64,000 bases of DNA from a virus (lineage: Duplodnaviria > Heunggongvirae > Uroviricota > Caudoviricetes), in IMG/VR virus record IMGVR_UViG_2718218305_000006; one strand, written 5' to 3'. Positions 9,001 to 12,000 of this stretch are shown piece by piece. The stretch's first letter is position 1. Each line of letters begins with the position of its first letter. The position numbers are program-made.

Positions 9001-12000
9001 CGTGTGGCTGATAACAACGTTCAGCAGGAACAGCCAGCGCCAGAAGAAACCACCACGGCAACAGAAGCGAAAATCTCAGAGTGCGATTTAACCGCGACGA
9101 TTGAACAACGCGGACCACAAACGGCGGATGAACTGGCTACGCTGTTCGGTACAACATCCCGCAAAGTTGCTTCAACGCTGGCAATGGCAATCAGCAAAGG
9201 TCGTCTGATTCGCGTAAACCAGAACGGTAAAATTCGTTACTGCATACCAGGTGATAATTTACCAGCAGAGCCGAAAGTTGAATCGGTAGCGGAAACCGAT
9301 GGTAAAGCCTTTCCTCAGCCAGCCGGTGTTGCGTTACCGGTACAGAAAGATGCAACACAGGAAGATATTAAAACAGAAACTGTGGCGGACATTGTGCAGT
9401 CGCTGCCATCGTTTACTGCAACGCGAGAAGATGATTTGATTTTGCCATCGCTGCATATGGCAAATCGCGAACTGCGTAGGGCGAAGAATCATGTCCAGAA
9501 GTGGGAGCGAGTCTGCGCCGCGCTGCGGGAGCTGAACAAGCACCGGGATATGGTTGCCGGGATTTGTCGGAAGTCCGGGCAATGAGCGGATGGTGCAGGC
9601 CTGAAATCATGATACTAACAATGAAGGTAAAATGCATCGGCAGTCTGATTGGTCGTAGTGAGGCGGCGGTCAGGATGAAAGCCCAGGTTAAGGGAATAAG
9701 CCTGATTCTGCGGGGTGATTTTCACCAGTCAACAAAATATCCGTAGCGCGATAACGGTCAAAAATTATGGCGCTGACACTTTTGTGCCACTGGAGATGAC
9801 TGTACCTAAGTTCAGGGGAGAAGAACACGTCCGGTGGGATGGTCGGGCCAGATTTAAAGGGCAGGTCATGGCTCCAGCCTGTACGCTGGCAATGGAGGCT
9901 GCCTGGCGGGAAATTGATATGGGAACCACGCCACTCAGGGATTTACTGCCGGTCCAGAGAATAAATTCCTGTTACGGTTACACCACTGTGATCTTGCAAG
10001 TGCAGGAAAGTAGGTCTACACGGTAACGCGAGTGCGTGTAACTTTTGATGTCATTCCCGTAGAAACACCGGACAAATTTTCGCTGACAGGTCATGCAGAA
10101 GGTATAAATCTGCAGATTATGGACAATTACGGATATCCGGCAAGAGCCGGAAAAAGCATGCCGCCTCTAATTCTCAGTGGAAGATGGACTTGATTATACT
10201 CATTGCATTGTCAGAAATAGTTATCCATTAAAGGCTGGCTATTCCAAACAGGATGTTGATTACAAAAATGTAATCAACATGTAAGGTTTATACTCTTCAA
10301 TATGCGTATAATTTTCCTTATTTTGTTGACTTTAAATAACAAGCTATGCACGAGGTAAAGTCGGATAAGTTTATCTGGATGTAATATATATTATTTGTAG
10401 TGTTTATAACTTTATTTCATGATAACCAATAAAAGGAGTTTTTTATGAGGAACATAATGGCAGGTTTTTTAATATTCCTGTCTTCTGCTGCTTATGCTGA
10501 TATCAATCTGTATGGTCCTGGTGGCCCGCATACAGCCTTGCTTGATGCAGCCAAACTTTATGCCGAAAAAACAGGTATTATAGTGAACGTTCATTACGGC
10601 CCACAGAACAAATGGAATGAAGATGCCAAAAAAAATGCAGATATCTTGTTTGGCGCATCAGAACAATCTGCTCTGGCTATCATTCGGGACCATAAAGACA
10701 GCTTCAGTGAAAAAGATATTCAGCCTCTTTATCTGCGAAAAAGTATTTTACTGGTAAAGAAAGGTAATCCTAAAAATATCCGGAGTATTGACGACCTGAC
10801 CAGACCTGGGATTGGCGTAATTGTTAATGATGGTGGTGGTACCAGTAATACATCAGGCACTGGCGTCTGGGAAGATATTGCCGGACGTAAAGGGAATATA
10901 GAAACTGTCGCCGCAATCCGAAAAAATATTATTTTATATGCGCCCAATAGCGGAACTGCACGTAAGGCTCTTGAGAATCAGCCTGGAGCAGATGTCTGGA
11001 TAACCTGGGCTGACTGGGCAGCCAGTAATCCAGAAATTGGTGATGTCGTGGAAATAGCGCCAGACTACGTGATATGGCGTGATATGAACATTACAGTACG
11101 TCAGGATGCAAATGATGAAACCCGTCGATTTGCAGAATGGCTACAAACCGATGAAGCGGCGCCTGCATTCAAAAAATATGGCTGGACCAGGAAAGGCACT
11201 TGACATCCTCGTCCTTCAGGACGTGGATTCTTTTTCCGGATGCCGCGCCAGCGGCATGTAGGGGCAGCTCACAAAACGGAAAAAATTGTACGCTAAGCCT
11301 CGCCAGGTGAACTGAATTCATTCCGATATGGGAATTCCCATATCGGGCGAAAACGGTTTGCTGTAACGGCAGAGTTAAGTAGGATTGCTGCGGGTGCTTG
11401 AGGCTATCTGCCTCGGGCATGAACACCAACGGCAGATAGATAAAAGCCCCACCCGACTATAAATCGAAGTGAGGCCCCTATATGCTCGTCACATATAGAT
11501 TGCCTCTTACGGACCGAAAGGTCAAGGAGAAGCAGGCTATGAAGCAGCAAAAGGCGATGTTAATCGCCCTGATCGTCATCTGTTTAATCGTCATAGTGAC
11601 GGCACTGGTAACGAGGAAAGACCTCTGCGAGGTACGAATCCGAACCGGCCAGACGGAGGTCGCTGTCTTCACAGCTTACGAACCTGAGGAGTAAGAGACC
11701 AGGCGGGGGAGAAATCCCTCGCCACCTCTGATGTGTCAGGCATCCTCAACGCACCCGCACTTAACCCGCTTCGGCGGGTTTTTGTTTTTATTTTCAACGC
11801 GTTTGAAGTTCCGGACGGCGCCGGAATAGAATCAAAAATACTTAAGTAGCGCGCAGGGAGAAGAGGGATGGACCCCGAACAGGGGAGTGCTATTTATCTG
11901 GAAGGATTCTGTTGATGAGAATCGAAGAATTACGTGAAATTTTTAGTGAAGATGGCCTCTATACTGTGCGCGTTGAGAAGGGCGCTATTGTCAGCCACTG

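Follow-up and report, generated by a model that had tools for sequence, protein, structure and literature searches.

The gene paa, also called adfO, is a routine marker in the virulence typing of Shiga toxin-producing and enteropathogenic Escherichia coli (STEC and EPEC), and its product (porcine attaching-and-effacing associated protein Paa, or adherence factor AdfO) has two relatives of solved structure, AcfC of Vibrio cholerae (4jb7) and PEB3 of Campylobacter jejuni (3fir, 2hxw), of which PEB3 is an N-glycoprotein with phospho-ligands (as PDB titles also indicate). Adherence is reduced in mutants of Paa in porcine EPEC and of AdfO in serotype O157:H7 (PMC5976639, PMC8565820), and in the adfO mutant the production or secretion of other proteins is altered too (PMC8565820). 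A review of the O157 O-islands places adfO (z2053) in O-island 57 (OI-57), always together with the hok-like gene ckf (PMC8565820), and z2053/paa is induced in the contents of bovine rumen and rectum in an EDL933 lysogen (PMC8524897) and changes its expression on entry to stationary phase in a strain Sakai lysogen (PMC2241611). [quoted passage not shown] Described here is a computational analysis of a paa gene, and of the inverted repeat upstream of it, in a prophage within a stretch of 64,000 nt (referred to below as the window) of the IMG/VR virus record IMGVR_UViG_2718218305_000006 (Caudoviricetes), which followed up an earlier note made from the sequence alone.

The closest described regulatory systems are those of the hiuH and cusC promoters of E. 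coli K-12. CusR and HprR (YedW), of the two-component systems CusSR (copper/silver) and HprSR (H2O2/HOCl), have very few targets in K-12, where theirs is almost a single-target regulon. Both regulators recognize the sequence CATTACAAAATTGTAATG between hiuH and hprR of K-12 (PMC9302797; bioRxiv 10.1101/2021.09.09.459708; PMC8249747), and hprR is required for the adherence of enterohemorrhagic E. coli (EHEC) O157:H7, for which HprR chromatin immunoprecipitation sequencing and RNA sequencing were reported (2026, PMC13064566).

The best explanation of the locus as a whole, with an estimated probability of about 0.8, is that a known paa cassette is carried as prophage cargo, that its product belongs to the AcfC/PEB3 family and that a predicted CusR/HprR box lies in its promoter region. 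The open reading frame (ORF) at 10445-11203 is the known virulence-associated gene paa/adfO of STEC/EPEC prophages of the OI-57/PPompW type, since both its DNA and its protein are identical to annotated paa. Region 9586-11480 (1895 nt) has 100% DNA identity to many STEC chromosomes (O157:H7, O26, O103, O111 and others), whose loci are annotated "paa: AcfC family adhesin Paa," "fimbrial protein" and "hypothetical protein," and at least 80% of it is present in 572 of 5426 complete E. coli genomes. The DNA of the gene itself recurs without any difference in hundreds of E. coli genomes. It is also 99.9% identical to PPompW prophage records annotated [quoted passage not shown] The protein matches a cluster of 616 sequences (NCBI name AcfC family adhesin Paa) at 100% identity and 100% coverage, and the Prokaryotic Genome Annotation Pipeline (PGAP) names the identical locus paa (WP_001449026.1). 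The gene therefore does not differ from that of EPEC/EHEC (OI-57/CP-933O), and annotated paa loci share its neighbors in the window, namely a fimbrial pseudogene, hokD/ckf, rem and DUF968. The earlier note had taken the gene to be unusual, which does not hold for a virulence-associated gene studied since 2003; its description of a 252-residue protein with a signal peptide agrees with what was found, as the ORF is real and the N-terminus, MRNIMAGFLIFLSSAAYA|D, appears by eye (no predictor) to have the shape of a Sec/signal peptidase I signal, with no lipobox Cys.

Sequence comparison assigns Paa to the AcfC/PEB3 family, with the predicted class-II periplasmic binding-protein fold. Pfam SBP_bac_11 (PF13531) covers residues 20-247 (E 5.5e-34), and the expected binding-protein fold is upheld by full-length matches to the solved structures of PEB3 (3fir, E 1.2e-81, query residues 11-248) and AcfC (4jb7, E 3.5e-81, query residues 16-248). 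Paa is ∼53% identical to V. cholerae and Campylobacter representatives, and the motifs GPGGPH, SNTSGTGVWED, PNSG and WxTWxDW, shared with AcfC and PEB3, are all present and invariant in a 16-sequence alignment with identities down to 52%. The designation "ModA-like" in the earlier note is true only at the level of the class-II superfamily, to which ModA, Sbp and CysP also belong and of which ModA shares PF13531, and does not extend to membership in the ModA, WtpA or TupA families, because the modA and Sbp scores miss their cut-offs widely. NCBIfam modA (TIGR01256), with a cut-off of 62.5 bits, gives 18.3, the PRK10677 and PRK03537 models score far under theirs, and the sulfate/thiosulfate-binding (Sbp/CysP) models give 22.6 against 288, 21.5 against 155.5 and 19.0 against 308 bits, with a match of ∼45 residues only. 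Membership in ModA or Sbp/CysP was ruled out by these scores and by the lack of adjacent modBC or cysUWA genes. The genomic settings differ within the family: acfC lies in the toxin-coregulated pilus (TCP) island directly after toxT, and downstream of acfB (PMC5976639), whereas paa lies in a prophage/plasmid cassette. The genes of AcfC and PEB3 also lack a box of the CusR/HprR type, in contrast to the paa cassette with its predicted one.

The cassette is self-contained, a moron of a lambdoid prophage, flanked by the replication genes on one side and the hok-rem-DUF968-rusA-Q block on the other, a reading that rests on its own predicted promoter, its terminator hairpin, its deviant G + C content and its position between DUF1627 and hok. 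Compared by blastn with nine plasmid loci (85-89% identity), its left boundary falls at 10241-10259 and its right one at 11258-11263, and its G + C content is 41.6% vs. ∼51% in the flanks. Both junctions, the left one at 10241-10244 and the right one at about 11263, are sharp. On the left, homology to plasmid pixH stops at 10243, and with a 401-nt probe spanning the junction positions 1-144 match only plasmid pixH and positions 142-401 only paa cassettes, so that paa travels as a ∼1-kb unit with its own upstream region and a pair of hairpins at its end. Plasmids with paa-like genes come from E. coli, E. albertii and E. marmotae, and the surroundings of these genes are unrelated (STa with the insertion sequence IS1, repA, IS21, an autotransporter gene and others), at least five different left flanks meeting the left boundary of the cassette.

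The inverted repeat upstream of paa ends 164 nt before the ATG. What the earlier note called a perfect 28-bp palindrome has perfectly complementary arms of 12 nt but is not one as a whole, because the central AAAA is not self-complementary. The repeat is beyond chance: no match at ≤3 mismatches was obtained in 100 shuffles, and a shuffled window is expected to hold 0.03 perfect repeats with arms of ≥12 nt. The outermost 6-7 nt of the left arm differ between the plasmid alleles, with no compensating changes, and the core ATTACAAAAATGTAAT is invariant in all nine, the following caaYR-TGTAAGGTTT being invariant or nearly so. The functional part is probably this conserved 16-bp core (ATTACA-AAAA-TGTAAT) and not the 28-bp repeat, judging from the pattern of conservation. 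A Providencia homologue (67% identical) has TTACA-AAAA-TGTAA-N6-TGTAA upstream; its flanks are otherwise unalignable, and its upstream neighbor is an integrase gene.

The core fits inverted half-sites of the form AT(T/G)ACA, 4 nt, TGT(A/C)AT, agrees with the K-12 hiuH box ATTACAAAATTGTAAT at 15 of 16 positions and has the same half-site spacing as the K-12 cusC box ATGACAATTTTGTCAT. Read directly, the arrangement is gaaacagcctggttc-ATTACAAAATTGTAAT-gctgc-TGTAAGGTTA in K-12 hiuH, ATGACAATTTTGTCAT-ttttc-TGTCA in K-12 cusC and ATTACAAAAATGTAAT-caaca-TGTAAGGTTT at paa in the window, and the paa allele of plasmid pE105 keeps a left flank, ggaaacagcctgggt, with 36 of 46 positions equal to the hiuH upstream region. 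The hiuH-hprR and cusC-cusR regions of K-12 thus have the ATTACA/TGTAAT half-sites with a 4-nt spacer, the third half-site and a −10-like hexamer as at paa. One layout, in which the 16-mer box is followed after a 5-nt gap by a third TGT(A/C)A half-site and TAnnnT lies 33-34 nt after the box, recurs in eight promoters: K-12 hiuH, K-12 cusC, paa of the window, one plasmid paa, those of three plasmid DUF305-YncE operons and Providencia paa. From the box to the predicted −10 there are 34 nt in both hiuH and cusC, and 33-34 nt in the promoters of the plasmid DUF305 operons. The −10 positions, those of hiuH and cusC as well as that of paa, are predicted from sequence, as is a transcription start of paa at about 10318-10321. 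Unlike those of hiuH and cusC, the paa −10 is the consensus TATAAT. A further difference is that the hiuH and cusC boxes serve genes next to that of the regulator, whereas the predicted box of paa would serve a horizontally acquired adhesin gene. The coordinates are collected in Table 1.

Table 1. Features of the paa locus and its surroundings, in window coordinates (strand given as + or as. where none applies).
Feature	Position	Strand	Remarks
pixH-like fimbrial subunit pseudogene	9779-10243	+	ORF 9715-10026 is one piece of it
paa cassette (promoter region, paa, terminators)	10241-11263	+	shared with plasmid paa-like genes
Inverted repeat ATGTTGATTACA-AAAA-TGTAATCAACAT	10253-10280	.	arms 10253-10264 and 10269-10280; 4-nt spacer
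Predicted CusR/HprR box ATTACAAAAATGTAAT	10259-10274	+	
Third half-site TGTAAGGTT	10280-10288	+	5 nt after the box; identical in K-12 hiuH; overlaps the −35 position
Predicted −10 TATAAT	10307-10312	+	33 nt after the box; conserved in plasmid alleles
Shine-Dalgarno sequence AAGGAG	10433-10438	+	6 nt 5' of the paa ATG
paa/adfO (z2053, ECs1772)	10445-11203	+	252 amino acids, ATG start; codons 1-18 are the predicted signal peptide
Terminator-like hairpin CGTCC-TTCA-GGACG with T-run	11210-11223	+	3' of the paa stop codon
Hairpin ATGCCGC-GCCA-GCGGCAT	11240-11257	+	right end of the cassette
Junction spacer	11266-11349	.	84 nt, between the paa cassette and hok/sok; only with the prophage form of paa
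hok/gef-family toxin gene hokD ("ckf" in OI-57) and sok region	11482-11694	+	PF01848, E 1.7e-21; hokD in PGAP

In plasmid loci adding up to ∼90 kb, the relaxed pattern T[GT]ACA-N4-TGT[AC]A was found upstream of both paa and the DUF305-YncE operon and at only a single further site. This operon, of two genes for a DUF305 protein and a YncE-like β-propeller protein, was found on 18 plasmids of Escherichia/Salmonella, in some cases immediately upstream of paa, and all four Escherichia loci examined (L221 631-2281, L223 616-2268, L226 4772-6417 and L227 4771-6417, from pE105-3, pSTEC299_1, CP027551 and pESA134_2) have the box ATGACAAAAATGTAAT, 5 nt and then TGTAAGGT, ∼228 nt before the start codon. 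DUF305 is a copper-associated domain (as in cyanobacterial CopM), and by its promoter sequence the operon looks like a second mobile member of a predicted CusR/HprR regulon. It is the shared promoter layout, together with the box of the DUF305 operons, that leads us to interpret the repeat as a CusR/HprR box and to class the paa promoter with that of hiuH. Plasmid XJ6.1 has a further TTACATAAATGTAA palindrome (L220 2027-2040) ∼100 nt upstream of a divergent AraC-family gene of 166 codons; an IS21 end lies between it and the paa cassette, and it may be a chance occurrence.

The suggestion in the earlier note that the repeat is an operator is plausible, with the difference that it would be a host CusR/HprR box instead of an operator of the phage, and on the promoter comparisons this assignment to the hiuH/cusC design is rated as likely, if with some reserve. 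Whether the host CusSR and/or HprSR systems also act directly on paa/adfO is put at even odds. If so, CusSR (copper/silver) and/or HprSR (H2O2/HOCl) would switch paa on from a repressed prophage, and would do so independently of phage induction. Sites for FNR, TyrR, CpxR, ArcA, EvgA, GacA/UvrY, Fur and Zur (consensus sequences compared by eye) were considered for the repeat and rejected for wrong spacing or half-site orientation.

Several observations weigh against control by CusR/HprR or against the adhesin role of the product. The predicted box lies 186 nt from the ATG vs. 86-88 nt in hiuH and cusC, and a long 5' leader is therefore implied. A CusR/HprR orthologue was not found beside paa homologues in any of ∼90 loci, the only matches being generic ones to the OmpR family (27-37% identity). 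No such box precedes the homologues on the E. albertii chromosome, in Citrobacter, Edwardsiella and Enterobacter or on a Salmonella plasmid, those of E. albertii and the Salmonella plasmid having at −80 a one-mismatch TTAAA-N4-TGTAA that is too weak to count. Given that it is absent from most homologues, the regulation would be a trait of the E. coli cassette (and Providencia) and not of the family. In the literature searched no joint mention of paa/adfO and CusR/HprR was found, and the adherence defect of the hprR mutant has been ascribed to ler, the enterocyte effacement locus (LEE) and hiuH, with paa not mentioned (PMC13064566). AcfC is without effect on adhesion, which makes the adhesin role a contested one for the AcfC/PEB3 family (PMC5976639). 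A metagenome scan with the 16-mer core was uninformative either way, so short a pattern being unsuited to that collection: of 120 loci returned, only one, an identical E. coli sequence, has paa.

The first alternative concerns the action of the protein. Paa may be a direct adhesin, or it may be an indirectly acting periplasmic protein that binds or senses anions, given that AcfC affects chemotaxis and Paa/AdfO mutants adhere less. In one specific form, Paa would be an AcfC-like periplasmic ligand sensor that feeds a chemoreceptor or signaling protein, instead of an adhesin at the surface, with indirect adherence phenotypes, which is considered somewhat unlikely. It would account for the altered mucin chemotaxis and unaffected adhesion reported for the periplasmic AcfC (PMC5976639) and for the changes in other proteins in the adfO mutant (PMC8565820), and the invariant pocket motifs of the family fit the binding of a small ligand. 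However, the window has no acfB-like chemoreceptor gene alongside paa, and the mutants of Paa and AdfO do have adherence defects in the literature. This alternative is also compatible with the explanation of the locus preferred here, differing from it only in the last mechanistic step.

The second alternative concerns the repeat, which could be a structural or recombinational hairpin that marks the end of the cassette or insulates it from upstream transcription, and not a transcription-factor site. Its start does lie 12 nt from the point where homology of the cassette ends on the left and the different left flanks meet, it folds as RNA at −15.1 kcal/mol (z = −5.0), and a second hairpin lies at the right end of the cassette. 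Yet the stem is not followed by a U-tract, so that it is not an intrinsic terminator, the outer arms are not conserved and show no compensatory changes between alleles, and the conserved elements are the 16-bp core, the third half-site and the spacing to the −10, which match the known CusR/HprR promoters. The Providencia copy barely folds (−2.8 kcal/mol as RNA) and yet keeps the core. A hairpin function is accordingly regarded as unlikely, both for the missing U-tract and for the poor folding in Providencia. A related idea, that the cassette is a mobile element bounded by "hairpin + GTAAGG" at both ends, was dropped, since the left GTAAGG is the third half-site and the downstream hairpins are kept only within the E. 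coli paa clade.

Less likely again is that Paa is a working binding protein for transport, delivering an oxyanion (sulfate, thiosulfate, molybdate or a phospho-compound) to an importer encoded elsewhere (CysUWA, ModBC), with adherence secondary. The class-II fold, the Pfam family shared with ModA, a weak local similarity to sulfate- and molybdate-binding proteins and the sulfate binding of the periplasmic AcfC (PMC5976639) are in keeping with such a role. Against it are the sulfate and molybdate model scores far under their cut-offs, the genomic contexts and the literature searched, in which no uptake phenotype was found reported. No permease or ATPase gene occurs in the neighborhood of paa (DUF1627, a 55-codon ORF, the fimbrial pseudogene and hokD), and a dedicated or cognate transporter is lacking beside the homologues in all of eight diverse contexts (the aga operon of the E. 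albertii chromosome, a Salmonella plasmid, Edwardsiella, Enterobacter, Campylobacter PEB3, V. cholerae AcfC, Francisella and a metagenome-assembled genome), where the two ATP-binding cassette (ABC) operons within 6 kb of the homologues each encode a binding protein of their own. The lack of a partner that the earlier note pointed out thus extends from the locus to its relatives, and the homologues are not ones that always occur with transporters. Finally, sequestration of a ligand, decoying of a receptor or exclusion of superinfecting phage, as the earlier note had proposed, has nothing beyond the prophage location in its favor and is very improbable, as the cassette is on many non-phage plasmids, related genes are in chromosomes and pathogenicity islands, and the literature describes roles in adherence and colonization.

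Two homologues have settings of their own. The E. albertii chromosomal paa (87% identical; L086 4681-6762) is accompanied by a DUF302 gene, lies within the N-acetylgalactosamine (aga) operon, with agaS on one side and a split agaA on the other, and has no CusR/HprR box; its route of acquisition is different from that of the E. coli cassette. In the draft genome of Providencia alcalifaciens DSM 30120 (L010 3905-4747) the homologue seems to be interrupted, its ORF ending after 75 codons with tblastn matches going on, and it directly follows a tyrosine-integrase gene and so is on a mobile island too. The plasmid cassettes are often damaged: an IS110-family element lies just after the terminator hairpin in pSTEC299_1 (L223 3554-4558), an IS481 element is inside paa of E. 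albertii pEA50_1 (L218 3401-4447), and the paa allele of plasmid XJ6.1 (L220 2716-3345) is shortened to 209 amino acids.

In the window, the gene order around the cassette is dicA, dicC, a ydaT-like gene, replication genes, DUF1627, the 55-codon ORF, the fimbrial pseudogene with paa, hokD, rem, DUF968, rusA and Q. The earlier note was right that paa is prophage cargo, in a variable slot between phage modules, and that it is AT-rich (39.5% G + C over 10001-11000, with flanks of 50-51%). Its remark that prophage 2 of the window carries a kinase/phosphatase pair in the same slot is broadly correct, both cargos following a DUF1627 gene. In prophage 2 the overlapping genes for a PP2C phosphatase (61643-62359, minus strand) and a Ser/Thr kinase (62343-63137, minus strand) form a segment of 35-38% G + C downstream of that prophage's own DUF1627 (59517-60287) and DUF977 (60288-60683) genes. 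To the right of the paa cargo, hokD is a gene of the phage backbone, and the hok/sok region matches the sokW region of phage 933W at 93%. The prophage around the cassette is mosaic; of the first 25 kb of the window, only 53% aligns to PPompW records, and among complete RefSeq genomes there is no end-to-end match to 36-60 kb of the window.

To the left, ORF 9715-10026, suspected earlier to be a gene remnant, indeed belongs to the pixH-like pseudogene. This matches PixH of plasmid pEB2 of enterotoxigenic E. coli (ETEC) B7A (tblastn E 1e-62; 85.8% DNA identity over 480 nt). It is interrupted by two frameshifts and one in-frame stop and is missing ∼23 codons at the start and 13 at the end; PGAP lists it in an identical genome as "fimbrial protein, frameshifted; internal stop." A Pfam search with the fimbrial fragments, single or joined, gave no match. 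The remnant is nearest to plasmid-borne pixH (67% amino acid and 86-89% nucleotide identity) and not to chromosomal fimbriae. As this adjoining remnant is closest to plasmid pixH, the phage may have acquired the paa cargo from a plasmid.

The junction spacer to the right of the cassette is present in 579 E. coli genomes, about the number with the prophage paa region, and essentially nowhere else. It contains a perfect 24-bp palindrome at 11323-11346, CCGATATGGGAATTCCCATATCGG, with an EcoRI site and an RNA fold of −18.3 kcal/mol. Further perfect inverted repeats in the window (arms ≥12 nt, spacer ≤10 nt), at 14946-14976, 24033-24065, 43980-44010 and 44848-44878, are probably terminators.

The paa gene is already known and its family is structurally characterized; the facet that was not found reported in the literature searched, where no description of paa regulation was found either, is the predicted control by CusR/HprR, which is of modest interest but specific and cheaply testable. 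If the prediction is true, a ∼1-kb cassette moving between prophages and virulence plasmids would carry a copy of a hiuH-type upstream activating region, and such prophage and plasmid targets, including the DUF305-YncE operons, would form a mobile extension of the CusR/HprR regulon. A colonization factor would be wired to signals of copper/silver or of neutrophil-type oxidants (H2O2/HOCl), linking exposure to copper or oxidants in the gut with its expression, and paa could explain part of the HprR-dependent adherence of EHEC, complementing the existing account (PMC13064566). It would also raise the possibility that the real job of Paa is stress-related anion binding in the periplasm, and not adhesion.

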